Positions 8,983-25,735 are shown, counted from the stretch's first letter. The stretch is 64,000 nt of DNA from an uncultured delta proteobacterium (GCA_963814035.1 CAWFBH010000002.1:118691-182690); one strand, 5' to 3'. Made by a program: numbers and translations. The notes: generated from the letters alone by a model not told the origin.

Positions 8983-9943
8983 TCACTCCGAATCGCGAGG
9001 CGGGCGGAACAGCGCGGGCGCTTCGGTGGCATCGATGAAACGCGGATCGGCGATTTGATTCTTCACGTACGCCGCCACCTTCGGCCATCGTGCCAGGCGT
9101 TTTGCCGGCCACGGAAGACTGAGCCCTTTTATCGCCGGATTTGCGCGGACGAGGTCGAAAACCGCCGTGTACCACTTGAGCGCCTCGGCCTCGGACTTCG
9201 CTTCAGGCGCAGCCGGGCTGATAACCACCGGCTTGCGATGACGCACCGCTGCCGCGACGAATTCCCTGGTCGCCGCGCTGCTAAAATCGGGCGCATCCTG
9301 GATTTCGAGCCCCCACCAATCGACCACGTCATCGCCCGGATACCATTTCAGGTATTGCGAGTTGGAAAGACCGCGCGCTGCCGGAGCCCAGACCATCGCG
9401 CAATTCATGTGGGCCTTGCGCATGATGTCAGTCGCATGCCGAAACGATCCGATATAGGCCGACGGTTCATAGAGCGCGCCGGCCGTGTTGAATTTGCCGC
9501 CCATGACTACCAGCGTCGGGCGCCCGAGGTTGTGCAGACGCGTCCGCGAGCACCATCAGGTCGGGATCGCGCATCCCGGTCGATACATCCTGCTCGAGGC
9601 CGTGGAAATTGATCGCGATCTGCGCGATGAAAAATCCGTGCGCCGCGGCGAACTCGCGAAAATGATTCATGAAGCCCGAGACGATGGTGAAATCCGGACC
9701 CACGTCGAATGCGATCATCGCCGGCGCATGTGGCGCGATCGTCTTCGCATATGCCGCGAGGTCCGCCGCCTCGCCTTTTCCGGCCGCCTGGCCGAGGTCC
9801 CACGCGCCGGAGAACTGCCCCCATCCGCTGATGACGCGCCCGGCCGGAGGTTCGACCGGCGCGCCCAAAAAGCCTTCCTCCGCCGATACCGGCGCGCATA
9901 GCAAAAGGACGGCGAATGCTACCGCCAGTACGATCTCGCGCAT
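8983..9943 (-). CDS. Secreted glycoside hydrolase family 26-like protein with non-canonical catalytic sites; one frameshift near 9540
   Basis: ORFs 9467..9943 and 8983..9504 join as LADA|LHNLGRPTLVVMGGKFN; GH26-type WYPGDDVVDWWG motif; signal peptide. Confidence 0.72.
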
Positions 9944-9950
9944 GCGAGGC

Positions 9951-10430
9951 CTACTGCTCCGCCAGCATCGCGCGCGCCTTCACGATGATCTCGCGATCGC
10001 TCTTGTAACTCGCCAGATGCTCCGCTTCCTCGATATTTACCCACCGCACCTCGTCCATCTCGTGGTCGTGTGCATCGAGGCTGCCGCCGCGCGGCTCCAT
10101 CAGGAAGTAGTGGACGTTCTTGAAGATGCGCACCAGCGGCTTGCCCGGCGCGTCGCGCCATGAAAACACGTAGGAGATTTTTCCTACTTCCGCGCCGGGC
10201 GTGACCTCGAGGCCGGTTTCCTCGCGCGTTTCCCGCGCCGCAGTCTCGATGAGCGTCTCGCCCGGATTGGGCTGTCCCTTCGGCAACACCCACGCGTCCT
10301 TTCGAGCCGGGCGCGCGAGCACGATTTCCAGCCTGTCGTGCGCGCGACGCCACACCACGCCGCCCGCCGACGTTTCATGGCGCCGCTCGATATCGTCCGA
10401 TGTGCTCTTTCTCTTTTCTTTCGCCGCCAT
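9951..10430 (-). CDS. Nudix hydrolase
   Basis: SAGGVV, LPKG and Nudix box GQPNPGETLIETAARETREETGL; likely start MAAKEK at 10430. Confidence 0.92.
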   Translation of the reverse strand: MAAKEKRKSTSDDIERRHETSAGGVVWRRAHDRLEIVLARPARKDAWVLPKGQPNPGETLIETAARETREETGLEVTPGAEVGKISYVFSWRDAPGKPLVRIFKNVHYFLMEPRGGSLDAHDHEMDEVRWVNIEEAEHLASYKSDREIIVKARAMLAEQ

Positions 10431-10441
10431 CAATTCGCCTC

Positions 10442-12606
10442 CTACCCCACATCCGCGAGGCTGAACCCCATCGCCAGCATCTTCTTCAATGCCGCCTTCG
10501 CCCCGCGCGAGGCCGCCGTCGCCAGCTTCGCGTCGGTCTTCAGCCATTCCTCCGCCATCGCGCGCGCCCGCCCTATCATCATGGGATCATTGACGTAACG
10601 AAGAAACCGCAGCGGCAATGCGCCGGTCTGCCGCGCCCCGAGGAGGTCGCCCGGCCCGCGCAGGTCGAGGTCGGCCTGCGCCACCGCATTTCCGGTCGTG
10701 CATTCGATCATCACCTGGAGCCGCGCGCGCGCCACATCATCCGCCTCGCGCGACATGACGAGGCAACATCGCGAGGCCGCCGCTCCGCGCCCTACCCTGC
10801 CCGCGCAGCTGATGCAACTGCGCGAGGCCGTATCGCTCCGCCGCGATAATCGCAATCACCGTCGCCTCCGGCACGTCGATTCCCACCTCCACCACCGTGG
10901 TCGCAATCAGCACCTTGATGATACCGTCGCGAAACTCGCGCATCACGCGGTCTTTCTCGACGCCCTTCATCCGCCCGTGCAGGATGCCGATGCCGGCGGC
11001 GCGCAGCGGGCCCTTTTTCATCCGCGCCGCCATCGCGTTCACCGTCTTCACTTCCGCATCTTCGTCATCGTCATCATTGTCGATGAGCGGCAGCACGTAG
11101 TACGCGCGATGGCCACGCGCGATTTCATCGGCGACAATCGCATCGACCGTATCGAGGCGATCTTCCGGGATAAATCTCGGTCGCGATCGGCGTGCGCCCC
11201 GGTGGCAGCTCGTCGAGCACCGAGACGTCGAGGTTGGCGAACAGCGACATCGCGAGCGAGCGCGGAATCGGCGTCGCCGTCATCATCAGCACGTTGGCCT
11301 TGGGCCCCAGCGCTTTCAGCTTCGCGCGATCGAACACGCCGAAGCGATGCTGCTCGTCAACGATCCCCAGCCCCAGCTTCGCGACGCGGACGTTTTGCTG
11401 GATGAGCGCCTGGGTGCCGAATGCGATCGGCAAATCGCCGCGCGCCAGATCGCGCATCGTCGCGGTTCGCGCGCCGCCCGCGATCCTCGCGGTGAGCAGC
11501 TCGCTGCGGATGCTCAGCCCGCCGCATAGTTTCCGAAAGCTTCGATGGTGCTGCTCGGCGAGCAGCTCGGTGGGCGCCATCATGATGGCCTGCGCGCCCG
11601 ACTCGACCGCGCGCAGCATCGCCCAGAACGCGACCGCGGTTTTGCCGCTGCCGACGTCGCCGATGAGGATGCGATTCATCTGGCGCGGCGCGGCGAGGTC
11701 GGCGCCAATCTCCTCGAGGGTGCGGCGCTGCGCGCCGGTCATCTGAAACGGAATCGCCTCGATAAACCGGTCTGTCAGCGGCACAGGCTTTAGCCTGTGT
11801 TCTTCTCCCCCTCGCAACTCCATCCCCGGACGTTTCTTCGATCTCTCCCGCTCGATACACATCGCCAGCTCGAACCCGTAGAGCTCATCGAAGGCGAGCG
11901 TGCGATGCCCCATCGAGCGCCCCTTCGCCAGCTCCTTCAAATCGGCCTCGGCGGGTGGGCGATGCAGATGCTCCAGCGCCTCGCAATCGTCGGGAACTCG
12001 CCGGCGAGGCGCTGCGGCTCGGGAATCGCCCCCGCGATCTTCGGCGCGGCCTGGTCGAGCGCCGTCGCGACCATCGACGCATAGAGGCGTTGCGGAATGC
12101 CCTCGGGAATCCGATAGACCGGCCGCACCGGACTCCCCTTGTCGTTTGCCTCCGCGACCGCGCAGCTCGGGCTGCACCATTTCCACATGCTCGTCGGCCG
12201 CCTTGGTGACGCGCCCGTACGCGGCGACGCGGAGGCCATCGGGCATCTTGCCGCGCATGTACGACGGCAGGTTGAACCACACCAGCCGAAGCTGCGCGCC
12301 GGCCGCATCGGTGAGCGAGGCGGTGACGAGGCGACGCCAGCGCGCGCCGGGCATCGGGCGCTCGCGAACGCCCGAGAGCGTGCCCTCGACGACCGCGATG
12401 GTGCCGGGTTCGAGTTGCGCGATGGTCCTGCGCTCGCGCCAGTCCTGGTAGCGCGCGGGCAGATGAAACAGGAGGTCCTCGATGGTGATGATGCCCTTGT
12501 TATTGAGGGCCTCGGCGCGTTTGGGCCCAATCCCCGCCATCGCCGCGATGGGGGTTTTTAAGGTGAGCGGTTTTATGGAATCCGCGACCGACGAGCCGGC
12601 AACCAT
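10442..12606 (-). CDS. recG: ATP-dependent DNA helicase RecG (four single-base frameshifts near 12160, 11985, 11160, 10800)
   Basis: GIGPKRA..TIEDLLFHLPARY wedge start, GDVGSGKT, MAPTELLAEQH, DEQHRFGV, MTATPIPRSL, TTVVEVGIDVP, QLRGRVGR after frame correction, DLDLRGPG. Confidence 0.92.
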
Positions 12607-12646
12607 CGCCAATTATTCAGTCCGAAACTCTCTCCGATATCCATAA

Positions 12647-12691
12647 CCCTCTCCCCATAGGGAGAGGTCGGCGCGCAGCGCCGGGTGAGGG
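12647..12691. repeat. REP-like palindromic element
   Basis: CCTCTCCC-CATA-GGGAGAGG hairpin followed by GGCGCGCAGCGCC and GGGTGAGGG. Confidence 0.7.
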
Positions 12692-12789
12692 TCCTTACGA
12701 ATATAATTCCTCTTCCGCTTCTGCTTGCCCTTGTCTGTCGCCCCTGAAACGAAGTGAAGGGATCTACGCGCAGGATGCTGCGTGCGCGC

Positions 12790-12818
12790 TTGGCTCCTCT
12801 ATTGAACGTATATACAAT
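12790..12818 (+). promoter_or_regulatory. Putative sigma70 promoter of brnT-brnA
   Basis: TTGGCT (12790-95), 17 bp spacer, TACAAT (12813-18), 14 bp before the ATG. Confidence 0.5.
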
Positions 12819-12832
12819 ACATCCATACAACG

Positions 12833-13108
12833 ATGGTCTTCGAATGGGACGCCGGCAAGAATGCCGCCAATCTCGCGAAACACGGCATCGATTTCGAGGA
12901 CGCCATCGGCATCTTCGACGGCCCGATTCTGGAAAGACCCGATGAGCGGCGCGACTATGGCGAACATCGCATCATCGCATTCGGGGTCGTCGAAGATCGC
13001 GAACTAGCCGTGGTCTATACCGTCCGCGGCACGCACCGCAGGATCATTTCCGCAAGGAGGGCGCATAGACATGAGCGCAAAGAATACCGTGACGCGTACC
13101 CAAAATAG
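12833..13108 (+). CDS. brnT: BrnT family toxin
   Basis: FEWDAGKNAANLAKHGIDF, RRDYGEHR, RIISARRA. Confidence 0.92.
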   Translation: MVFEWDAGKNAANLAKHGIDFEDAIGIFDGPILERPDERRDYGEHRIIAFGVVEDRELAVVYTVRGTHRRIISARRAHRHERKEYRDAYPK

Positions 13109-13382
13109 CCGCCGTCGAGGCAAAACCGACTGGGCGCGCGTCGATGCTCTTAGCGACCGCAAGATCGAGCAGGCCATCCGCTCCGACCCGGATGCTGCGC
13201 CGCTTCTCGACCGCAAGTGGTTCGCGAAAGCGACCTTGGTGATGCCGGAACCAAAGGTGCCGATCTCCCTGCGAATCGATCGCGACGTGGTGGATTGGTT
13301 CAAGGCGCATGGCAAGCGGTACCAATCGCGCATGAACGCGGTGTTGAAGGCGTACATGCAAGCGCATCGCAAGGCGGGATGA
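13071..13382 (+). CDS. brnA: BrnA family antitoxin
   Basis: TDWARV...DPDAAP; RHH C-terminus ISLRIDRDVVDWFK..G.RYQSRMNAVLK; overlaps brnT. Confidence 0.92.
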   Translation: MSAKNTVTRTQNSRRRGKTDWARVDALSDRKIEQAIRSDPDAAPLLDRKWFAKATLVMPEPKVPISLRIDRDVVDWFKAHGKRYQSRMNAVLKAYMQAHRKAG

Positions 13383-13383
13383 A

Positions 13384-13519
13384 CCTCGACGGTGACGAAG
13401 CCCTTGTTATTGAGGGCCTCGGCGCGTTTGGGCCCGATCCCCGCCATCGCCGCGATGGGAGTTTTAAGGGTGAGCGGTTTTATGGAATCCGCGACCGACG
13501 AGCCGGCAACCATCGCCAA
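13384..13519 (-). repeat. Duplicated 5' end of recG (stub 1, 136 bp)
   Basis: Aligns without gaps to 12477-12612 with a few substitutions; truncated end lies next to the brnA stop codon. Confidence 0.95.
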
Positions 13520-13532
13520 CATCCTAATAGTC

Positions 13533-13614
13533 CCTTCTCTCGCTCGCGAGAGAAGGTGACAGGCGCGGTTCTCGCAATGGCTTCGCAGCGAGAAGCGTGA
13601 CTGGCGGATGAGAG
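13533..13614. repeat. REP-like palindromic element
   Basis: CCTTCTCTCG-CTCG-CGAGAGAAGG hairpin, inner TTCTCGC..GCGAGAA arms, ends CGGATGAGAG. Confidence 0.7.
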
Positions 13615-13625
13615 TGCGCGCCTCG

Positions 13626-13660
13626 CACGACGGTACCGAATGCGGTATCATCTCGTCGTG
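13626..13660 (+). promoter_or_regulatory. Putative HicB operator / promoter palindrome
   Basis: TACCG-AATG-CGGTA nested in CACGACG...CGTCGTG, directly at the hicA start. Confidence 0.5.
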
Positions 13661-13915
13661 AGCCGATGGCAAGACCTTGTCGAGTCGGCACGCGCGAGCC
13701 CCGCGAACGTTCGTTTCCGCGATTTATGCGGCTTGCTCGTCCGAACCGGTTACGCACTCGACCGGAAGCACGGTTCGCACCTGATATACCGCCACCCGTC
13801 CCGGCGAGACCTGCCGATCGTGAATCTTCAGGAAGGCCAGGCCGGCAAAGCCAAGCCATATCAGGTGCGGCAGGTTTTGGGACTGATAGATGCGAACAAA
13901 CTTGAGGTGAAGTGA
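13658..13915 (+). CDS. hicA: HicA family toxin
   Basis: PANVRFRDLCGLL...RKHGSHLIYRHP...KAKPYQVRQV; GSH motif; GTG start. Confidence 0.88.
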   Translation: MSRWQDLVESARASPANVRFRDLCGLLVRTGYALDRKHGSHLIYRHPSRRDLPIVNLQEGQAGKAKPYQVRQVLGLIDANKLEVK

Positions 13916-14313
13916 TGGCCGAACCCTTCAACTATCGCGTGGTCGTGGAATGGAGCGCAGAGGACGATGCATTCGTCGCCCGGGTGCCCGCGCTGCCGGG
14001 TTGCGCGGCCCACGGTCGCACGCCGGAATCTGCTACGCGCGAGGCCGTGAAAGCGGCGCGGGGGATCCTCGAATCGATGCACGCGCACGGCGACACGCTC
14101 CCGATTTCCGACATAGTCGCGGGTCATTCCGGGCAATTGCGCCTTCGCCTTCCTCGCTCGCTGCACGAGCGGCTAAGCCGGATGGCCGCCCTCGATGGCG
14201 TTTCGCTGAATCAGGAACTGGTAGCCCTGCTCGCATCGAGCGCTGGAGCGAAAACGGAACTGGCAACGCGCTCTCGCCGGGCGCGTAAGCGTCAGCCCTC
14301 AGCTCGCATGTAA
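13915..14313 (+). CDS. hicB: HicB family antitoxin
   Basis: WSAEDDAFVARVPALPGCAAHGRT; RHH region GQLRLRLPRSLHERL...GVSLNQ; TGATG coupling to hicA. Confidence 0.9.
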   Translation: MAEPFNYRVVVEWSAEDDAFVARVPALPGCAAHGRTPESATREAVKAARGILESMHAHGDTLPISDIVAGHSGQLRLRLPRSLHERLSRMAALDGVSLNQELVALLASSAGAKTELATRSRRARKRQPSARM

Positions 14314-14490
14314 GCGCTGCGGCAGATGTAACAGGAGGTCCTCGATGGTGATGATGCCCTTGCTATTGAGGGCCTCGGCGCGTTTGGGCCCGATCCCCGC
14401 CATCGCCGCGATGGGGGTTTTTGAGGTGAGCGGTTTTATGGAATCCGCGACGGACGAGCCGGCAACCATCGCTAACTATTCAGTCCGAAA
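14314..14490 (-). repeat. Duplicated 5' end of recG plus leader (stub 2, 177 bp)
   Basis: Aligns without gaps to 12451-12627 including upstream TTTCGGACTGAATA; begins at the base after the hicB stop. Confidence 0.95.
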
Positions 14491-14586
14491 GTCACGATGA
14501 AACAAAGATCCCAACGAGCGACGTGATACAATCAGCGGCAGCCGTATCGAGGGGAACGTATGCCAACATTTTGGCGGTGATGAACT

Positions 14587-16350
14587 ATGACACTAGATCC
14601 TATGATGTCGCTAGCGCTGGCGATGCAATCCAACCGAAACGCGTATTAGATTCTCTCGGCTCAGGAATTTCACGACCAGCCCCAGGATACCTACCGGCTG
14701 GGAGGTCGTGTAGAGGATCTGATAAGAAAAGTAGCAATCCTGCGAGGGGAAAATTGCGATGAAAACCCCGCGGATTGGTATTCGCGGAACTTCGGGGTAC
14801 CAGCGAATTACTCGGAATTGCTGGCTCTCCTAGCCACCGGAACCGCCGAGCGAAGAAGGCTGCTGAGGCAGTATTTCGAGCCAACCAAACAAGAAGCCTC
14901 GCAGGGAATAAAGACTCCTACCAAAGCTCACAAGAAGATCGCGCGCCTTGTCGCCTTGGGCTACGTAAAAGTAGTCATCACCACCAATTTTGATCGCCTG
15001 ATGGAAACGGCGCTCGATTCAGAAGGAGTAGTGCCCACTGTTATCAGCACCAGGCCGACGCGGTCGCCGGGGCGGATCCGATCGCGAACAGCATCTGTTA
15101 CCTCGTCAAAATTAACGGCGACTATATGGACGCCCGAATCCGCAATACGGTTGAAGAGTTAACGACTTATGACCCGAAACTGAATGCCTTGCTCGACCGT
15201 ATTTTTGACGAGTTCGGAATTGTAGTGTGTGGCTGGTCAGCCAACTGGGACATTGCCCTACGTGCCGCGATTGAGCGTTGCCCAACTCGAAGATTTACAA
15301 CATATTGGGCTCTCGCGGTAAGACAACCGAAGAAGCTGAAAAGCTCATCGCGCTTCGACGCGCCCAAGTCATAGCGACTAGTGGGGCCGACAATTCTTTA
15401 GCGAAATCGTCGAGAAAATCGATTCACTGGAGACCCTCAAGGGCCCCACCCACTGTCACCGAAGATGGCATCAGAGAGCGTTAAGCGATATCTAGAGGAT
15501 AGCGCTCGGCGAATTGAGCTCTTCGATCTTGTCAATCGTGAAACCGAGAAGGTTATCCCGCAGTTATCCCTGACTCATTTTCCCGTTCAAACTCCGTTCA
15601 GCCCGACGAGCTTGAGAAACGCTTGAAACGTTACGAATCAATAGTGTCGGTTATTTCAGTCGATCATCACTATTGGCTGTTTCTGGGGAAAACAAGAGCA
15701 GTCGGAGGTCAGGGTCCGAATGATGCAGCGCAGTGAGCAAACCGTATTCCCCGGCAGGAGGAGAGGGAGATTTGGAGAAACCTTCGACTCTATCCGACGC
15801 TATTCCTAATGTACGCGGGGGTGTTGCAGCCGTCGCATCGCGCAACTGAGAGAGAGAGAGAGAGCCTTTTGAGGAGACAGACGGTCCGTAATGGGAGCCG
15901 AAGAACACAAAAAAGATGTAAACCCATCCAACGAGGTGACTGACTGGAACACAATCAGAACGGCCAGGCTCGGAAGACGCATAACGGCCCTGGTCAGCGA
16001 TCACTTGCTTAATGTTTTGCGGGAGCCCTTGAGAGAATTTCTGCCTTCCGATTCAGACTATGAAGCAAGTTTGGAATCAGTTCGAGTATTTCGCAGGTTT
16101 ACTTTATGTTCATATTACCAATAACGCCGATTGGGCCCCCGTCGGGCGTTTAGTTTGGCGTAACTTTCTCTATAACCGGGGCAAGATCCGCATGGCGGAT
16201 GACGTAGAAAAGAAAAATGCGCAGCAGCCGAGAAAGAGTTGGCCGCCGATCGAAGCCGGTCTCTTTAATGGATCCACCGAGAGATTCGGCGAGGTTGGTG
16301 AAGCATACCGAATAAATTTCCGAAATGGTCGCGCCGCAGATGGCTTGGGC
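14587..16350 (+). pseudogene. Decayed SIR2-like domain protein
   Basis: Fragments in shifting frames: MTLDPMMSLALAMQSN, LGSGISR, PTGWEVV, VITTNFDRLME, KINGDY, VVCGWSANWD, FEYFAGL, WAPVGR; many frameshifts; visibly lower GC; 3' end approximate. Confidence 0.75.
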
Positions 16351-16369: not shown

Positions 16370-16650
16370 AGCTTGAGCTGGAGTTGTTCCTGATGCGCGC
16401 CGAGACGTTGGTTGTCCAGGACGACGATTGCGACGGGTTGTGCGCCCTCGAATGCGCCGAGGAACCATCCGCCGCGATCGAAACATTCGGGCAGGATCGT
16501 GGTGTATTTTTCCGCTTCGCCGGGAGGCCATCCAGGGGTCTCGACGTGATGAGGCCGCAGCACGAGCCAGTGGTCTTCGACGCGATAGGTGTTCTCGATC
16601 GTCTCGCCACGAGGTCGATGCTCCGCTTCGACGATCAGACTCTATAGATC
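16370..16650 (-). pseudogene. Truncated GNAT acetyltransferase-like fragment
   Basis: RGETIENTYRVED..GWPPGEAEKYTTIL..FDRGGWFLGAFEG..VLDN..QLQLK, then homology appears to break; boundaries approximate. Confidence 0.5.
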
Positions 16651-17662: not shown

Positions 17663-18037
17663 TTATGCGCCGTGCTTCGCGCGCTTCACTTTGCGGCGGA
17701 CTGGTCTCGCGGAGCGGGAACGCTGACGTGACTCGAAAAACGCGCGCAGGACATTGTTCATCCGGGTCTGATAGCCCTCCCCGGTCTGCTTGAACCAATG
17801 GAGCACGTCACTATCGATGCGAATGTGAATGTCCTTCTTGCGCGGAGGCAGCCCTTTGAAGGCTTTGGTCCAATCGAGTTCCTCGTGGATGTCGTCGGGG
17901 TCGGCAGCGATGGAAGCCTCGAGCTCCTCCTCCGTCATGGCATCCACTTTTTTCCAGTCGGTACGACTTTCGCCGCGCTGTCGCATCGCATTTATCTCGT
18001 CAAGGGTATAGCTCACGGTATCGTCTTTCTTCCGCAT
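17663..18037 (-). CDS. brnA: BrnA family antitoxin (second copy)
   Basis: RTDWKKVDAM..IAADPD; IHIRIDSDVLHWFKQTGEGYQTRMNNVLR. Confidence 0.9.
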   Translation of the reverse strand: MRKKDDTVSYTLDEINAMRQRGESRTDWKKVDAMTEEELEASIAADPDDIHEELDWTKAFKGLPPRKKDIHIRIDSDVLHWFKQTGEGYQTRMNNVLRAFFESRQRSRSARPVRRKVKRAKHGA

Positions 18038-18278
18038 CTCTCGCTCTCCTCATGGTGATGATCCGAATCTTCTCGCCACGCGAGCACCAGACTACGGCCA
18101 CCATTCGGCCGTTCAGTTCCGCGACATTCAACCAGCGTTCTTCATCCGCGCGAGGCGAAGGTTCCGACAACGCCGGTCTTCCGTCGAAAATGTCGACCGC
18201 GTCAAGGAAATCCAAGCCTCTCTCCTTGAAGACCTTGAGTCTTTTGGCTTCAGACCATTCGAAGTCTTCGAACGTCAT
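18000..18278 (-). CDS. brnT: BrnT family toxin (second copy)
   Basis: FEWSEAKR..RGLDF..EERW..VVW..RIITMRRAR. Confidence 0.9.
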   Translation of the reverse strand: MTFEDFEWSEAKRLKVFKERGLDFLDAVDIFDGRPALSEPSPRADEERWLNVAELNGRMVAVVWCSRGEKIRIITMRRARDAEERRYRELYP

Positions 18279-18328: not shown

Positions 18329-19572
18329 CTAGATGATTTTGTCGCGGCGCAGTTGCTCCAGGTCATTCGGCGACACGCCCAGCACGTCGCCATAGATACG
18401 CTGGTTGTCGGCGCCGATGCCGACCGAGCCACGCCAAATCTTTCCGGGCGTGGCGGAGAACTTCGGCGCGATGCCGATGCCTTTGACGCGCCCGACCTGT
18501 TCGTCTTCCCACTCGATGTGCATCCCGCGCGCCTTGTAGTGGGGATTTTGCGCGACGTCCCTGCTCGACATGATGGGCGCGCACGGCACCTTCACCTCGT
18601 TCATCGCGTGGACGACCTCGGCGGCGGTGTGTTCGCTGATCCATCCGCGCAGGAGCGCATCCCATTCGATGCCTTCGATGGTTTCGATCTGGATGCGGGC
18701 GCTTTCCATTTTTCTTCGGCGGGATCGAGGCCGATGACGCGGGTGACGGCGTCGAATTTCTCCTCGCCCAGCGCGCCGAGGACGATCCATCCGTCGCTGG
18801 CCTGGAACGCGTCGAGGGGCTGGAAGCCCTGCGCGCGATTGCCGGAGCGTTCGCGCACGATGTCGTTGCGGAAATATTCGAGCATCGTTCCGCCGAGGGT
18901 TTTGTGGATGGCTTCGTTTTGCGCGACGTCGATGGACTGGCCCTTGCCGGTCGAACGCGCGTAGGTCAGCCCGGCGAGCGAGGACCATAGGGTGAACATC
19001 GCGGTCATGTAGTCGCCGATCCAGGGCGCGGCGCGCATCGGCGGTTCGGGATCGGGCGAGCCGGTTTGAAACATGGTGCCGCTGACGGCCTGCCCCACGA
19101 TGTCGTAGGAGGCGCGGTTGACCCAGTCGGGATCGCCATTTTGCCCGAAACCGGAGACGTGGGTGATGACGAGCTTCGGGTTGACCTTCCACACGCTGGC
19201 ATCGTCGAGGCCCCATCGCGAGTAGGAGCCGGGCTTGGAGCTTTCCATCCAGATGTCGGCGCGGGCGGCCATCTTCAGGAAGAGCGCCTTGCCGCGGGGC
19301 TGGGAAAAATCGAGGGTGACGCAAAAGACGTTGCGGCGCTCCTGGATGAAGTTGGTCGAAACCGGCGCGGCGCCGTCTTTGGCCTCGAAGCGGATGCCGA
19401 TGGTGCGCCATCCGGCGTCGCCGGAGCCGGGGCGCTCGACCTGGATGACCTCGGCGCCCATTTCAGCGGCCAATTCAGCCGCGAAGGGCTGGGCTATCAA
19501 GGTGCCGGTGGAGACAATCTTTACGCCTTGCAGGGGGCCAAAAGCCTCGGGCACCAGGGTCTTTTCGGGCAT
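18329..19572 (-). CDS. CaiB/BaiF class III CoA-transferase, one frameshift near 18705
   Basis: LQGVKIV, EMGAEVIQVERPG, RNVFCVTLD, ITHVSGFGQNG, APWIGDY; C-terminal half in ORF 18329..19411 (KVPCAPI, GIAPKFSATPG). Confidence 0.88.
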
Positions 19573-19713
19573 TCCATCCGCCTCATGCTTAAAATTAGTG
19601 AAGAATCATGCCCCGTTTGCATCGAGGCGGGCAACCGAGGCGCATCGACGCAGCCTCGTGACGGCGTTGGCCGCCTTTCGGGCGCGGGATATTATGACAG
19701 CGGATTTTCCACG

Positions 19714-21030
19714 ATGAATGCATCGATTAATCATCGAGAACTGACCTATAAAGCCGTTGCCGGCCTCGCGGGTGGCGCCATCGGATGGCTGCCGGTCGAG
19801 ATCGCGAGTCACGGCCACAACCTGACTGATGTGATGACGACCGGCGACATCATCGCGTCTTACGTCACGATGGCGATGCTGTCGGGGATGATCGGCGGGC
19901 TGATCCTGGCCTCGGATGAGCAGAAGATCGAGCTTACGCCGACGGTGCGGAATCGATTCATTCTCGGGTTCGTCGTATGTTTCCTCCTCGCGCTGCCGGC
20001 GAACTACTACTCGAATATCGTTTTCTCCGCGATTCTGAATTACGGCGGATGGGGCACCGGCCATCCGGGTTCGATTGGCTACCTGGTCTTCGGGCGCGTG
20101 GTTTCCTGGATGATGATGGGCACGATGCTCGGCGCCGGGGTAGGCATCGCGGGTTTTTTCGGCTCCGCAGTGCCTCCGATCAAGTCGCTCGTTGGATCGA
20201 TTAATTTCCCCGCCATCAACATCATCAAAGGCGCCGCCGGGGGATGGATCGGCGGCGTCGCAGGCGGTCTGACCTTCGACCTTATCAATCAAGTGACCGG
20301 CGGCGGGTTGGCCTCGCGACTGATTGGATTGAGCCTCATCGGGTTGGCGATCGGATTGCTCATCGGACTGGTTCAGGAGCTGACCAAGGCCGCATGGCTC
20401 ACCGTCGATGCGGGTCGCCTGAAAGGTAGGCAATATCGCCTCGAAGGCGGGGTCTCGTCGATCGGCCGCGCCGAGGAAAATCCAGTCGGGCTGTTTGGCG
20501 ATGCCGCAGTGCAGGCGCGGCATGCGGTCATCGAGCGGCGCGGCAATGATTACGTGCTCCGAGGCCTTGCGGTTGCGGATGGAACTTTTGTCAATGGCGA
20601 GCGCATCGAGAGCGCGACGCTGCACGATGGCGATCGCATCCGCATCGGATCGTACGAACTGAGTTTCCATTTGCGCGGAGTGAAACCATCGATGCGGGTG
20701 GAAGCCGGTCCGTCGCAGTCGTACGTCGCGCCGCAGATGGCTGCCTCGAATGGCGGCGCGGTCCTTGTTGATGCGGCGGGCACGAGCTTTCCGATTGCGA
20801 CAGGGAAGGAAACCAAAATCGGACGTGCGACCGACAACGATATCGTGCTGGGAGATTCCTCGGTGTCGCGTCATCATGCGGCGATTGAATCGCGCAACGG
20901 AAGTTTTCAGGTGCGAGATCTGGGCAGCCAGAACGGAACCTTCGTGCGCGGCGAGCGGGTCAGCGAAGCTCCATTGAAGAACGGAGACCCGGTGCGGGTC
21001 GGCGACGCTTCGTTTACCTTCCGTGCCTGA
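19714..21030 (+). CDS. Multi-pass membrane protein with two C-terminal FHA domains
   Basis: About six to seven Gly-rich hydrophobic segments, then IGRAEEN..VQARHA..DGTFVNG and IGRATDND..VSRHHA..SQNGTFV. Confidence 0.88.
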   Translation: MNASINHRELTYKAVAGLAGGAIGWLPVEIASHGHNLTDVMTTGDIIASYVTMAMLSGMIGGLILASDEQKIELTPTVRNRFILGFVVCFLLALPANYYSNIVFSAILNYGGWGTGHPGSIGYLVFGRVVSWMMMGTMLGAGVGIAGFFGSAVPPIKSLVGSINFPAINIIKGAAGGWIGGVAGGLTFDLINQVTGGGLASRLIGLSLIGLAIGLLIGLVQELTKAAWLTVDAGRLKGRQYRLEGGVSSIGRAEENPVGLFGDAAVQARHAVIERRGNDYVLRGLAVADGTFVNGERIESATLHDGDRIRIGSYELSFHLRGVKPSMRVEAGPSQSYVAPQMAASNGGAVLVDAAGTSFPIATGKETKIGRATDNDIVLGDSSVSRHHAAIESRNGSFQVRDLGSQNGTFVRGERVSEAPLKNGDPVRVGDASFTFRA

Positions 21031-21409
21031 CGCGGATTTTTTTGATCGGCCGCGCTTCTGCTCCCGATGCGGTTTACCGGTAATCGTCGAAGGCGCGAGC
21101 TTCTGCAAAAGTTGCGGCGCCGCTCTCGATGGGCGCGCGCCATCCGCCCCGCGCGAAATCGGGATGCGTCCCGTCATCGCATTTGTGTTGAGCATCATCC
21201 CTGGACTCGGTCATGTTTACCAAGGCGCGCCGATGCGCGGGGTGATGTGGTTCTTCGGGGTTGTCATCGCATATGGGGCCGGACCGATCGGCTATCTGCT
21301 ACACTTGATATGCGCGGCGAGCGCGGCCTCGTATGGATCGCGTTCGTACGGGGAACGTCGGCGACGGCGCCGTGGCCGGAGGATCGATCGCGTCTCCGCG
21401 CACCTTTGA
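21023..21409 (+). CDS. Double zinc-ribbon plus TM2-like small membrane protein
   Basis: CSRC..CKSC; FVLSIIPGLGHVYQG; Arg-rich tail; overlaps upstream stop. Confidence 0.8.
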   Translation: MPDADFFDRPRFCSRCGLPVIVEGASFCKSCGAALDGRAPSAPREIGMRPVIAFVLSIIPGLGHVYQGAPMRGVMWFFGVVIAYGAGPIGYLLHLICAASAASYGSRSYGERRRRRRGRRIDRVSAHL

Positions 21410-21428
21410 GCATGAGCGAATCGACTGG

Positions 21429-22997
21429 ATGATCGAGGCCAACTCCATAATCGGCGGACGCTATCGCGTCACCAAACCGCTCGGCGGCGGCGGCATGAAG
21501 ATGGTCTACCTCGCCGAGGACATGCGCCTGGCGTCGCGGCCGTGCGCGCTCGCCGAGATGGTTGACAGCTTCACCGATCCCTCGATGCAGCAACAGGCAG
21601 TCGCCGCCTTTCAGCGCGAGGCCGACATGCTCGCGCAACTCAGCAACGAGCATATCCCGCGCGTATTCGATCGCTTCAGCGACCAGAATCACCATTACCT
21701 GGTGATGGAGTTTATCGATGGCATTACGCTCGAAGACGAACTCAAAAACGAGGGCGGCAAACTCGAAGCGCCGCGCGTCATCGACATCGCACTGCAGATT
21801 CTCGAAACGCTGCAATATCTGCACAATCTCGAACCGCCGGTCGTATATCGCGACCTGAAGCCGTCGAACGTGATGCTCGGGCGCAACGGGCAGGTCAAGC
21901 TGATCGATTTCGGCATCGCACGATTCTTCTTGCCGCAGAGCAACGCGACCATGATCGGCACCCAGGGTTATGCGCCACCGGAGCAGTATCGCGGCCGCGC
22001 CGAGTCGCGCTCGGATTTGTATGCGCTCGGCGCCACGATGCATCACGCGCTGTCGGGCCGCGATCCTGCCGCGGAACCGCCCTTCAGTTTTCCGAAGCTC
22101 AAGACGCTCTGCCCCGATATGAATCCTGCGCTGGCCGAGTTGGTGGACCAGGCGCTGGAATATGACGTCGTGCATCGGATGGCCGATGCGGCGGAGTTCA
22201 AGGAGCGCCTCCTCGCGATTAAGGCCGGGACGGCGACCGCCAGGGTCAACGGTCAAACTGCCTCGCCGCGGCTGTCGGGCAAACCGCAAATGCGGCTGCC
22301 ACTCGGAGGCGCCCCGGTGCAGACGAGATCCGCGCCCGAAGACGCCACCGTCATCTTGAGGACGGACGATTTGCGCTGTCCGTCGTGCCGCCGAACGATT
22401 CCATCCGATTCGCGATTCTGTTCATTTTGCGGCGCGGGCGTGACACCGACACTGGCCACCAATGGTGGCCGCAACGCCGCGGATTCGGCGACCACCGTAT
22501 TGCCGGAGCGAGCTATTCCCGCATCGCAGCCGGACTATTCGCGCAGCGTCGATCAGCATCCGAACTGGCGACCAGCACGCCGCGATCCGCGACCGGTAAG
22601 GTTCGTTGTCGCGCTCTTAGTGGGATTGGTTGTCATGGCGTTCGCGGCTACCGGCATCGTGAACTACCTCCAGCAAGTGGCGCATCAACCAGAGCCGCCC
22701 GCGTCTGAAGCCGCGATTCCCGGGGATGAATCGGTGCCACCTCGGTATGAAAATCCAGGGCCGAACGTGCCCGATCCGCCGCATCGCAGCGCGGAAGAGA
22801 TAATGTTGCGGCAGTTGTTCAACATGGAAGGCCTGCAAACAGTGCACTTCATGATGTCCGGCGGTACAGTCGTTCTATGGGGTACGGTGCCGAGCGAATT
22901 CGCGCGCGAAGAAGTGCGCGGACAAGCGATGGCTTTCGGCAACCAGATGATAGATCACCTGATAATCCAATCTGATATGTCCGGCGGAACCGAATGA
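21429..22997 (+). CDS. Hanks-type Ser/Thr kinase with zinc ribbon, TM helix and BON-like C-terminal domain
   Basis: GGGGMKMVY, FQREA, VYRDLKPSN, LIDFG, GYAPPEQ; CPSC..CSFC; hydrophobic VVALLVGLVVMAFAATGIV; GTVVLWGTVPSE..MIDHLII. Confidence 0.92.
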   Translation: MIEANSIIGGRYRVTKPLGGGGMKMVYLAEDMRLASRPCALAEMVDSFTDPSMQQQAVAAFQREADMLAQLSNEHIPRVFDRFSDQNHHYLVMEFIDGITLEDELKNEGGKLEAPRVIDIALQILETLQYLHNLEPPVVYRDLKPSNVMLGRNGQVKLIDFGIARFFLPQSNATMIGTQGYAPPEQYRGRAESRSDLYALGATMHHALSGRDPAAEPPFSFPKLKTLCPDMNPALAELVDQALEYDVVHRMADAAEFKERLLAIKAGTATARVNGQTASPRLSGKPQMRLPLGGAPVQTRSAPEDATVILRTDDLRCPSCRRTIPSDSRFCSFCGAGVTPTLATNGGRNAADSATTVLPERAIPASQPDYSRSVDQHPNWRPARRDPRPVRFVVALLVGLVVMAFAATGIVNYLQQVAHQPEPPASEAAIPGDESVPPRYENPGPNVPDPPHRSAEEIMLRQLFNMEGLQTVHFMMSGGTVVLWGTVPSEFAREEVRGQAMAFGNQMIDHLIIQSDMSGGTE

Positions 22998-23650
22998 TCG
23001 TCGATATCCACGTCCACACCAATCTTTCCGATGACTCGAAAACCACGCCGGAAAAATATGTCGAGGCGGCGATCAAAAGCGGTGCGGGCCTGGGCGCGAT
23101 CTGCTTCACCGAGCATCGCAAGTTCCCACGCGATCGCGAGATCGATCGCATTTACTCCGAGCTTTCCGATAACCACGGGATTCTCATTATCAAGGGAGTC
23201 GAAGCCGATACCGATCTCGGCCACCTTCTGTTATTCGGGCTCAATGATGAAGTTCTGCGCCGCTTCGATCCGACCCAACGGATGCTCAAGAGCGCGCATC
23301 TCATCGACGTGATTCACAAGGAAGGCGGCATCGCGATCCCGGCGCATCCGTTTCGCGATTCCGGCTATGGCGCCCGCCTCGATGATTTGGTGGCCAAGCA
23401 CGGCAGCGCGCTCTCCGCCGTCGAAGCCATCAATGGGCAGAACTCGCCGGCCGAGAATGAGCGCGCGCTGATGGAGGCGGAAAAACTCGGCCTGACAGCG
23501 CTCGGCGGCAGCGACGCGCACTTTCCGACGCCCCATTGGTTCCTGACTTGCGCGACCGAACTGGAGCGCCCAATCAAGAATGTCGAAGAACTTTGCATAG
23601 AGTTTCGCGCCGGCCGCGCCCGCCCCTATCGTTTTCCTCGCGCCGCGTGA
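22994..23650 (+). CDS. PHP domain phosphoesterase
   Basis: DIHVHT, FTEH, GVE, HLL, AHPFR, GGSDAH; ATGA overlap with the kinase stop. Confidence 0.9.
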   Translation: MIVDIHVHTNLSDDSKTTPEKYVEAAIKSGAGLGAICFTEHRKFPRDREIDRIYSELSDNHGILIIKGVEADTDLGHLLLFGLNDEVLRRFDPTQRMLKSAHLIDVIHKEGGIAIPAHPFRDSGYGARLDDLVAKHGSALSAVEAINGQNSPAENERALMEAEKLGLTALGGSDAHFPTPHWFLTCATELERPIKNVEELCIEFRAGRARPYRFPRAA

Positions 23651-23653
23651 AGC

Positions 23654-25735
23654 CTACGCAGTGGCCGGCGTCCCGTTCGCGGGTTTCGCGGGCAACTCTT
23701 CCAGCGACCGCGCGAAGCGGCGCAGATCCGATGCGCGGCCCGCGATCACCAAAAGATCCCCGGCCTTTAGCGGCCGGTCGGGCGAAACCGGAACGAAACC
23801 CGAGCCGGGATCATCGAAGTCACGCAACGCCAGCACCGTAACGCCAAACCTCGCGCGCGGATCGAGTGTGCGAATCGTCTGTCCCACCGACGCGGCGGGA
23901 ACCGCGACCCGCGTCACCCGATAGCCCGTCGCCCAGTAGATGTTGGAGTCGCCGCGCGCGATCGAAGTCAGCGACAGCGCCACTCGATTGAGTGCCTGTG
24001 CGAGATGGCGCCGCGTCACAAGGCCGAGAAATTGTCCATCGTGCGGGCGATCGGCAACCGGGATTTCCTCCAGACCATCGACGCCCATCAACTCGCTCGC
24101 CGCATCGAGGGTCGCGTCGGGCAGCACCAGCGGCGGGTTGCGTTCGCACAAATCATACGCATTTACCAGCGGTGATAACTCACTGTCGCGCACCAGCAGC
24201 GAGAGCAAATCGCGGGTGACGATGAGACCGACAAAATTGCCGGTGCTGTTCACCACCGGCAGCGTTGATTGCGAGGTCTCACCGGCAATCCGCAGCACCT
24301 CGTCGAACGAGGTATTATCCGCCACCGTCACGACGTCCTTATCCATCACCGCGCTGACCGGAATCTGCCCCAGCGCGAGACGCTCCTGCGCGATGTGCAG
24401 CGTTTTACCTTCGCGCGCGAGGCGAAAGGTATCGATCGATTCGGTCTCGATCATCCGCGCCACCACCAATGCCGCAATCGTTGCGATCATCGCGGGCAGC
24501 GCGACGGTGTAGTTTTGCGTCATCTCGAAGAGCAGAAAAAGCGCGGTCAATGGTGCGTGCGTGGTGCCTGCGAGAAATGCACCGAGGCCTACCAGCGCAT
24601 AGGACCCGCGCGGTCCAGCCAGATTAGGGATGAGATGCGCGATGGCACGCTGGAAGGTTCCGCCCGCCATCGTGCCGATGAAAAAGATCGGTCCGAATAC
24701 TCCGCCGGGAGCACCCGAGCCGAGTGACACGCTGCTGGTGAACATTTTCGCGAAGGTCAGCGCCGCAAGCATCGCGAATTCATACTTGCCCGCCATCGCA
24801 TCGTTGATGGTGGGATAGCCGTCGGACAAATTTTGCGGAAGAAAAATCGCGACTGCGCCAACGATCCCGGCTCCGATGGCGAGCTTCTGCCAATCGGGAA
24901 TGGCGAGCCGGCGAAACCGGTCGGCAGTCGCATGGAAGAAATGGATGTAGCTGGCCGCCAGCACGCCGAAAATCCCGCCCATTGCGCCGTAGGTCAGCAT
25001 TTCCCAGTAGCTTTTCAGTACAAAGGGTGGAACCTGAAAGACCGCATCGTTTCCGGCCACCATGCGCGAGGTTACCACCGCCGTCACCGTCGCCACGATC
25101 AGCAGCGTCAGGTTCGCGAGCTCGGTGTGGCCGAGCAGGACGATCTCCTGCGCAAACATCAGCCCGCCCATCGGAGCGTTGAAGGTGGTCGCGATGCCGG
25201 CGCCCGCCCCTGCCGCGACCAGCACTTTCGCGCGTTCAGGTCCCATTTTTCGGAGCTGCGCGACCGCCGATCCGATCGCTCCGCCGACCTGCGCGATGGG
25301 ACCTTCGCGTCCGACTGACCATCCCGAGCCGAGCGACAGTGCGGCACCCGCGGCTTTGATGAAAATCCATCCGCGCTTGATGCGCGCGTTGCCGAGGTTC
25401 ACTTGCTCGAGGAAGTGAGGGAATCCATATCCCAGCACGTCGCCGCGAAAGACGCGGTCGAGGAGCAGCATGCCGACCGCGCCGGCCGCGAGCACCAAAG
25501 GAACCGAGATGCGAAAGATGCCGCCGCGTGAAATTTGCAGCACCTCAAGCCCGAGGTAAAGAAACGCAGCTTGAGACCAATGGATCAGTTGACGAAAGCC
25601 CAGGTTGCCCAGCGCCGCGAGCATCCCGACGATCGCGGCGAGCAGGATCATCTGGACATAATTGTACTGATCGCTGCGAAGCCCGAGGTTCGCCTTAACA
25701 GGATTAATCTTGGATCCAGGCACTCGGACACCCAA
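23654..25735 (-). CDS. ClC-family chloride channel/transporter with CBS pair and TrkA-C domain
   Basis: GYGFP, GREGP, FNAP, GAPGGVFGP, FEMTQNY; CBS repeats; C-terminal RCK-C (VGQTIRTL..RFGVTVLAL). Start uncertain. Confidence 0.9.
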   Translation of the reverse strand: MGVRVPGSKINPVKANLGLRSDQYNYVQMILLAAIVGMLAALGNLGFRQLIHWSQAAFLYLGLEVLQISRGGIFRISVPLVLAAGAVGMLLLDRVFRGDVLGYGFPHFLEQVNLGNARIKRGWIFIKAAGAALSLGSGWSVGREGPIAQVGGAIGSAVAQLRKMGPERAKVLVAAGAGAGIATTFNAPMGGLMFAQEIVLLGHTELANLTLLIVATVTAVVTSRMVAGNDAVFQVPPFVLKSYWEMLTYGAMGGIFGVLAASYIHFFHATADRFRRLAIPDWQKLAIGAGIVGAVAIFLPQNLSDGYPTINDAMAGKYEFAMLAALTFAKMFTSSVSLGSGAPGGVFGPIFFIGTMAGGTFQRAIAHLIPNLAGPRGSYALVGLGAFLAGTTHAPLTALFLLFEMTQNYTVALPAMIATIAALVVARMIETESIDTFRLAREGKTLHIAQERLALGQIPVSAVMDKDVVTVADNTSFDEVLRIAGETSQSTLPVVNSTGNFVGLIVTRDLLSLLVRDSELSPLVNAYDLCERNPPLVLPDATLDAASELMGVDGLEEIPVADRPHDGQFLGLVTRRHLAQALNRVALSLTSIARGDSNIYWATGYRVTRVAVPAASVGQTIRTLDPRARFGVTVLALRDFDDPGSGFVPVSPDRPLKAGDLLVIAGRASDLRRFARSLEELPAKPANGTPATA

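Follow-up and report, generated by a model that had tools for sequence, protein, structure and literature searches.

Many chromosomal toxin-antitoxin (TA) modules have no visible mobile element beside them, and the route by which they arrive is poorly understood. The question is raised in a concrete form by a stretch of 64,000 nucleotides from an uncultured delta proteobacterium (GCA_963814035.1, CAWFBH010000002.1:118691-182690; the whole stretch is called the window below), in which two different TA operons, brnTA and hicAB, stand one after the other in front of the helicase gene recG, and in which each of them is followed by a copy of the start of that same gene. How do small modules of this kind come to lie between repeated pieces of a housekeeping gene? 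We consider it probable that the array consists of the scars of at least two recombinase-independent insertions at the recG start, of the kind that is known as "insertion with long target duplication". The window's first reading, below the original prediction, had described the locus as an array of TA cassettes built on repeated recG 5' ends. Coordinates are positions in the window, and junctions in relatives are given as window-equivalents. Genomes carry G-numbers (G000, which is the window's own genome, G002-G005, G008 and G009), and loci fetched from assemblies carry L-numbers. G000 is a metagenome-assembled genome (MAG) of 29 contigs and 4.95 Mb, 75.6% complete, and its genus mates, whose contigs reach 4.3 Mb, are long-read soil MAGs to judge from their naming.

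The recG start and the two inserted units

The target gene recG lies on the minus strand at 10442..12606, has its ATG at 12604-12606 and is recognised by the Pfam domains RecG_wedge and DEAD. As had been predicted, and at essentially the same places, its 5' end is present in triplicate, as three direct repeats on the minus strand. R1 (12450..12630), which is joined to the body of recG and served as the reference for the repeat family D1, holds the first ~52 codons and ~24 nt of leader. R2 (13384..13519) is a dead stub with codons 1-43 and 8 nt of leader, and R3 (14313..14540) is a dead stub with codons 1-52, the native leader and the upstream motif; the repeat proper in R3 covers 14313-14493, including as in R1 ~24 nt 5' of the ATG, and the sequence then passes on to the upstream motif that is native to recG (CCGAAA..GAAA.CAAA), as far as ~14540. 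The copies are 93-96% identical overall (R2/R1 95%, R3/R1 95%, R2/R3 93%; BLAST E values of 3e-56 to 1e-89), and BLAST found no further recG-start copy in the 4.95 Mb of the genome beyond the three at the locus. Both stubs evolve without strong constraint, with a ratio of nonsynonymous to synonymous substitution rates (dN/dS) of 0.44-0.57 at a dS of ~0.08-0.10. Gene conversion among the copies was considered and found unneeded, since a divergence of 4-7% between them fits the age of the split between G000 and G002.

The copy R1 was called live in the original prediction, and it is indeed the one joined to the gene body, yet as assembled here recG is interrupted by four frameshifting indels (+4, -1, +1 and +1 against the intact 734-aa RecG of G002, where tblastn needs three frames). 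None of the four lies within a long homopolymer, and the density of indels relative to G002 is uneven: the 8 kb that take in recG and the flank to its left hold 18 gap openings, and the 6.5 kb at 18331-24877 hold 4. The frameshifts in recG, and those in the SIR2-like gene that is described further below, are either true pseudogene mutations or errors of a long-read MAG.

The first unit begins with a spacer (12631..12832, plus strand) that contains the hairpin pal1 at 12648-12695, a second element resembling the repetitive extragenic palindromic (REP) type and a sigma-70-like promoter for brnT at 12790-12818. The toxin gene brnT follows at 12833..13108 on the plus strand (91 aa; Pfam BrnT_toxin, E 3e-25, 88.8 bits; dN/dS 0.08 against G009), and overlaps the antitoxin gene brnA at 13071..13382, also plus (103 aa; Pfam BrnA_antitoxin, E 1.3e-17, 64.4 bits; dN/dS 0.07 against G009). 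In the second unit the spacer (13520..13639, plus) holds the REP-like pal2 and the hicA promoter region, and is followed by hicA at 13640..13915 (plus; Pfam HicA_toxin, 31.2 bits at a cut-off of 27) and hicB at 13912..14313 (plus; Pfam HicB and HicB_lk_antitox, 32.8 and 30.0 bits; dN/dS 0.08 against L082). The units measure 0.75 and 0.79 kb and contain TA genes and REP-like spacers only. BrnT/BrnA stand toxin first, HicA and HicB are adjacent, and all four proteins score above their Pfam cut-offs, which are the marks of type II systems, and both are predicted to be intact type II TA pairs. Purifying selection on the TA genes is strong, with a dN/dS of 0.07-0.08 at a dS of 0.55-0.92. The cargo thus differs between the units, as had been claimed, and so does hold the claim that the truncated ends of the stubs abut the antitoxin stop codons: the inner end of R2 lies 1-2 nt past the TGA of BrnA, while its outer end meets pal2, and the inner end of R3 lies at or within the TAA of HicB.

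The common layout that the original prediction saw in the two units stands as far as the succession of spacer, TA pair and stub goes. The "palindromic repeats" are, on the other hand, two unrelated dispersed REP-like elements and form no part of a common cassette design. Both fold stably (pal1 -35 kcal/mol, z -3.6; pal2 -49.6 kcal/mol, z -3.0). There is one further copy of pal1 in the genome, on contig C25, and there are copies in relatives, where elements of the pal1 type adjoin the native recG leader in G004, G005 and L091, and also a recG-start stub far from recG in G003. The element pal2 (13530-13614) belongs to a dispersed REP-like family of ~85 bp with at least 11 further copies in the genome, 82-93% identical. 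Three members of the pal2 family form a tandem array at C1:248772-249488.

A terminator-like hairpin with a T-run (CCATCGCCGCGATGG GGGTTTTT) is found inside the recG-start repeat on the plus strand, at 12537-12561 and 14400-14424. In R3 it sits ~90 nt beyond the HicB stop and on the strand of the TA genes. Going by its sequence it could terminate the transcripts of the TA genes, or it may have arisen by chance from the codons for PIAAMAGIG.

Empty, single and stacked sites in relatives

A scan of genome and metagenome collections with a 21-nt pattern gave a single contig with two matches, that of G009, and the other informative contigs were obtained by BLAST of the fetched loci. An exact-sequence look-up of the BrnA and HicB of the window gave no match. 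Taken together, the loci form a series that begins with empty sites holding one copy of the recG start, found in G003, G004 and G008. In G008 the order is recG with its one copy, the leader motif CCGAAA..GAAAGCAAAAT, a GNAT acetyltransferase gene and carB, and G003 is alike up to the GNAT gene. The flanks of the array in G000 align with G003 at 8993-12651, 14313-14512 (87.5% identity) and 16372-16619. G004 has its one copy and the native leader with other cargo beyond, and in L078 a vapBC pair stands where the GNAT gene stands natively.

Sites with a single unit are of two kinds. In G009 recG and its start are followed by pal1, brnTA (79% identical to that of G000), a stub of the start, the native leader, vapBC and carB. 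In L085, which comes from an unrelated wood metagenome, they are followed by REP elements, hicAB (84% identical), a stub of 127 bp and the native leader. In L091 and L092 a full-length stub comes directly after brnA.

Two units occur in both orders. In G000 brnTA is proximal to recG and hicAB lies outside it, and the same order is seen in a decayed state in L082, L093 and L094, where brnTA is followed by hicB or fragments of hicB and then by the stub. The reverse order is found in G002, where the live start is followed by pal2 and a fusion of an N-terminal hicB fragment with a C-terminal brnA fragment, with higBA coming next. The junction between the repeat and pal2 on the live recG of G002 is exactly the junction at R2 in G000, and this is also the case in L076, which has the start, pal2 and the same hicB fragment as G002, followed by a RES-Xre pair. 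Since both orders are present in sister genomes, each type of cassette must have been next to recG in some lineage. The prediction that relatives carry units of stub and cargo at recG is thereby borne out, by G009, L085, L091, L092, L082 and L093.

The interval between recG and carB is a hotspot for TA and defence genes in this genus, with brnTA, hicAB, higBA, vapBC, RES-Xre, PIN_12 and SIR2 genes. Outside the genus no extra copy of the recG start was found among the 150 family genomes searched, which means that recG does not serve as a target in general.

Degenerate and inverted recG-start stubs are also found 160-320 kb away from recG, in G002 (L029 4743-4920) and in G003 (L028 4654-4739). 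The native leader motif and repeats of the pal1 type are attached to both of them, and each lies beside the end of a convergent gene. The stub in G003 starts at most 18 nt from the stop of a convergent gene of 428 aa, a PaaK-type ligase by appearance, and the one in G002 follows a zf-CDGSH gene, while the same spot is elsewhere occupied by hicB (L087, L088) or by brnTA (L093). These distant stubs suggest that larger rearrangements have started from such arrays.

Which copy is the native one

In G000, G009, L085 and L091 alike, it is the distal stub that carries the native upstream motif; the live copy of the recG start lacks it and is instead followed by sequence borne by the cassette. A simple local tandem duplication is excluded by this position of the motif. 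In G009 the live recG departs from the consensus of the genus over its first ~16 codons, and the stub has kept the consensus.

The comparison can be made more cleanly at another locus of G000. At the 3' end of mfd (C15:230317-231781) there are direct repeats of 90 bp, 94% identical, that hold the last 27 codons of mfd, and between them lies an insert of 1.29 kb with a frameshifted NYN-domain gene plus a 124-aa open reading frame (ORF). The empty site is present in G002, G003, G004 and G009. When stub and live copy are compared with the single copy of the relatives, the identities are 97.8/92.2, 93.8/90.0, 95.4/92.3 and 92.6/91.4%, so the displaced stub is closer than the live-gene copy in four of the four relatives. 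Selection should keep the live copy the closer one, yet the reverse is seen, which indicates that the live end of mfd came in together with the cargo as a surrogate gene end.

The genome has one more repeated gene end, at C16:105252-108534, where the 3' end of a HIT-family gene is present in triplicate (80-88% identical). The copies enclose one rhodanese-like and one putative regulator gene, and a fragment of an IS3-like transposase adjoins.

Junctions, cassette ends and the search for a recombinase

The original prediction had proposed to look for junctions at constant positions, and these were not found. The inner junctions fall at 12440 in L091 and L092, 12444 in G009, 12451 at R3 and 12477 at R2 in G000, ~12505 in L085 and L082, and ~12545-12563 at the distant stub of G003. 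That is at least six positions over ~120 bp, some of which can be derived from others by small deletions, and such variable positions argue against a site-specific device.

The cargo is just as loosely bounded. The hicAB core that is common to the loci is ~640 bp long and extends from ~35 nt 5' of the -10 box as far as hicB codon ~115, and it is flanked by different spacers on the left and by different HicB tails on the right. The same core is found in at least four other contexts with other flanks. One of them, at ~3.38 Mb in G009 (L086 3430-4553), has a hicAB that is 80% identical to that of the window and is enclosed by two copies of a ~190-220-bp REP array; these flanking arrays share a stretch that is identical in 50 of 50 nt, and the stop codon of HicB lies inside the repeat. 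With one core and differing flanks, the cassettes have no fixed ends.

Tyrosine recombinases (PF00589) were searched genome-wide in seven genomes of the genus, and their positions relative to recG were checked in G000, G002, G003 and G009. None was found on contig C2 of G000, which carries the array, and the region within 70 kb of recG is free of them in G002, G003 and G009. The whole genome of G009 has only two, which score like XerC and XerD. The large ORFs that were scanned within ~10 kb of the array gave no match to a recombinase or transposase, with serine recombinases and DDE transposases not searched genome-wide, and scans of the region for tRNA genes and Rfam RNAs gave none. Within these searches the statement that no integrase or transposase lies nearby is upheld. 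An imperfect 8-8-8 palindrome in the repeat (GATGCCCT-TGTTATTG-AGGGCCTC) was tried as a recombinase core and rejected, as it is unconserved in G004, G005 and G009.

A proposed route by recombination at the gene start

We infer that entry took place by recombination at the gene start. In each event a TA operon with its own promoter and REP-like spacer DNA would have come to lie between two copies of the recG start, that is, of the promoter-proximal region and the first 43-59 codons, so that recG keeps a complete start, while what remains of the second copy is a dead stub directed towards and into the antitoxin gene at its 3' end. The incoming DNA would stem from a related strain that already has the cassette beside its recG start, and it would recombine, homologously or illegitimately, within the resident start. 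It could do so as a circle made from the fragment, with a single crossover, or as a piece with one homologous end and one illegitimate join. The incoming start would then become the working copy and the resident one be displaced. Ku is present in all four genomes of the genus that were tested, so end joining and the formation of circles are possible.

Once two or more copies are in place, ordinary homologous recombination could add, reorder and delete units, which would explain the opposite orders in sister species. It also bears on the original prediction, which saw an iterative accretion with a new copy of 130-180 bp for each unit. Repeated entry at the recG start is supported by our data; a new duplication need not have arisen with each unit, since homologous recombination between the repeats can stack or reorder units once one is present. 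The loss of a unit from repeat to repeat should free the stable toxin, and this would be the reason why intact pairs are retained, while units with a dead toxin would decay by deletion. Such a penalty on loss builds on the established post-segregational killing by TA pairs and restriction-modification (RM) systems (PMC3874152).

The position of the stubs hard against the stop codons may have come about by trimming. Small neutral deletions would erode the stub and the spacer up to the indispensable part of the antitoxin and halt there. The brnA junctions at 12440, 12444 and 12477 resemble a deletion series, with GATGA microhomology at the relevant points, and the trimming is further favoured by a HicB tail that differs at each junction and by the one HicB stop that lies inside a flanking repeat. 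We regard this account as the weakest link of the explanation.

Several observations weigh against the route as described. The hicAB sites of L087 and L089 have no flanking repeats, so that this cargo can do without a long duplication. All of the five or six junctions lie 0-18 nt from a convergent stop codon, and the argument from trimming is post hoc. The live recG copy of G000 is as close to the relatives as the stubs are, or closer; import at recG is therefore not demonstrated in G000 itself and is argued from G009 and from mfd. A donor for the odd recG start of G009 is absent among the 150 family genomes, and no transfer intermediate, circle or donor has been observed.

How else could the array have formed? 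Two nicks on opposite strands at the recG start, 130-220 bp apart, could have been followed by ligation of linear DNA by Ku and LigD, with the fill-in duplicating the overhang so that both copies are native. This would suit a repeat whose length and position vary between events and cassettes that have no defined ends, Ku is at hand in four of the four genomes tested, and the three copies in G000 resemble each other more than they resemble any foreign copy. It does not predict that the live copies of recG in G009 and of mfd look foreign while the stubs look native, and we know of no documented case in which overhangs of more than 100 nt were a substrate of bacterial end joining, so we find this capture at staggered breaks unlikely. 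Another thought is that the units are relics of site-specific islands, integrase elements whose attachment site resembled the recG start, which integrated in tandem and were later reduced to their addictive TA genes. Integrative elements commonly form tandem arrays at one attachment site, and a surrogate end on the live gene, a displaced native end and direct repeats of 100-180 bp are what they would leave behind. Against this stand the junctions, at six or more positions and not at one core, and the tyrosine recombinases, with none near recG in four genomes and a pair in G009 that is XerC/XerD-like. With the antitoxin stop directly at the stub, no space is left for arm sites, independent deletions must several times have ended exactly at the boundary of the stub, and the same hicAB core occurs at unrelated sites with other flanks. 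Such relics are in our opinion quite improbable.

Local tandem duplication of the recG start with a TA operon, after which the cargo of one copy was replaced, has in its favour that duplication is a frequent process and that the join between the end of the antitoxin and about codon 55 of recG would be expected from a single duplication. The same sequence should then follow both copies, and the native leader motif is on the distal stub only; the units moreover differ in cargo, spacer and boundaries, and the live copies in G009 and at mfd are divergent. We give this course of events very little credence. The array could finally be an artefact, in which strain variants with different cargo were chained together during assembly, and the MAG is indeed 75.6% complete and has many indels. 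The three copies differ by 4-7% and their boundaries differ, however, and stub and cargo recur in at least eight independent assemblies from other samples, scaffold-type ones among them (G009, L082, L085, L091-L094), of which L082, L093 and L094 share the order of the window with brnTA, hicB and a recG stub. An artefact is hence the least credible of these explanations. Repeated insertion at the recG start by recombination, with a start brought along by the incoming DNA, is the explanation that we carry forward.

Relation to known insertion systems

Insertion with long target duplication is known for RM gene complexes (Nobusato et al. 2000, Gene 259:99; Furuta, Abe & Kobayashi 2010, PMC2853133). 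In many cases the repeats around such RM genes reach across a start or stop codon and thereby spare the target gene, and the mechanism is unknown (PMC2853133). Mruk and Kobayashi, in their review, bring it up for RM systems only. Four of the five features by which Furuta et al. (2010) define the class are present in the recG array: the repeats are longer than 30 bp (136-181 bp), there is an empty site with one copy and flanks that can be aligned (G003, G008), the insert is shorter than 20 kb and free of mobility genes within the PF00589 search of the contig and the scans of the neighbouring large ORFs, and the repeat is not a dispersed one, with three copies in 4.95 Mb. The fifth feature is RM cargo, and here the cargo is BrnT/BrnA and HicA/HicB. 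For that reason we file the array as a variant outside the published set. Like the RM insertions it is a small addictive unit without a mobility gene, its repeat is single-copy in the empty site and the target is left whole, and repeat lengths are comparable with 30 to ~420 bp in the RM cases and 90-220 bp here. It differs from them in its TA cargo, in having two units on three repeats, in showing both orders in sister species and in its decay series. A search of a full-text library of papers found no description of this architecture for TA cargo. What is new is thus the TA cargo, the stack of two units, the reciprocal orders, the decay series within one genus and an mfd locus that points to import of a surrogate end, while the kind itself has already been named for RM cargo.

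Some better known systems show parts of the same picture. Phage 21 and e14 at icd, and the islands specific for dusA, are integrase elements that carry a surrogate gene end. As at recG and mfd, the incoming DNA supplies the live end and the native end is displaced, with repeats of ~100-170 bp, but those elements have an integrase and a fixed core, whereas in the searches above no integrase was found within or adjacent to the array, and the junctions vary instead of being constant. The orphan-module arrays of Rhs, CdiA and the effector-immunity genes of type VI secretion systems grow by sequential displacement through homologous recombination. They resemble the recG array in that new modules enter beside the live gene by way of a conserved segment and older ones are pushed outwards with their stubs. 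There the stub belongs to a toxin gene whose tip is replaced, and here it comes from an unrelated housekeeping gene, that of a helicase, with cargo that is complete in itself.

The array also resembles those of integrons, among them the chromosomal superintegrons with TA cassettes, with stacking close to a promoter, boundaries right after a stop codon and TA cargo that stabilises the array. In contrast to integrons the repeat is the start of a coding gene with variable ends and probably not an attC site, each cassette has its own promoter, and no tyrosine recombinase of the IntI type was found on contig C2. Very small TA modules that move without a recombinase of their own are also found as the pdif modules of Acinetobacter plasmids, which include brnTA and higBA and are bounded by inverted XerC/XerD sites of 28 bp. 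The repeats at recG are unlike these long, direct and derived from a gene, and no Xer sites were recognised by eye.

Genes beyond the array

Beyond R3 lies a SIR2-like gene of the PDC-S65 type at 14587..16350 on the plus strand, a candidate defence gene with a G+C content of 0.49-0.54. It had been taken for a SIR2 remnant, and this does not hold: it is a gene of ~1.8 kb and of full-length type with at least seven frameshifts, and when it is read through these it matches PADLOC PDC-S65 with an E value of 9.5e-135 and Pfam SIR2_2 with 9e-10. Its place of insertion is flanked by the native leader of recG and by the GNAT acetyltransferase gene, whose C-terminal half it has replaced. The remaining N-terminal half (16372..16619, minus strand) is 87% identical to G003; the gene is the native neighbour of recG in G003 and G008, and the full-length GNAT gene of G008 matches Pfam Acetyltransf_1. 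A second and distant BrnT/BrnA pair is found on the minus strand at 17663-18278, 3.4 kb past the array, adjoining an SMP-30/gluconolactonase gene, and it is 39-40% identical to the first.

What the array means

The series at recG is unusually complete, with an empty site, two kinds of single unit, a stack of two units, the reverse order and stages of decay. Neither an enzyme nor a kind of element that would be new comes to light in it, and the mechanism is one that we infer. The model can be tested at the bench. The series points to a route into the chromosome without a nearby recombinase gene, in which a duplicated or imported start keeps the target whole. It extends a mode of insertion that was previously known for RM genes only to a second addictive class of genes. 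It also suggests a reason why addictive cargo should be found between long direct repeats, as its loss by recombination would be penalised.

We may tentatively take this further, and propose as a possible though rather doubtful generalisation that duplicated gene ends serve as portable homology arms. Addictive modules, be they TA pairs, RM systems or small defence genes, would with their help enter, stack and exchange at hotspots free of any recombinase. Each cassette would carry along a stub of the gene that was its last neighbour and mend that gene on arrival, and addiction would let inserts persist that are otherwise unstable. If this is true, the homology-arm route would be an enzyme-less functional counterpart of the integron, and recG and mfd would be two instances of it in one organism.

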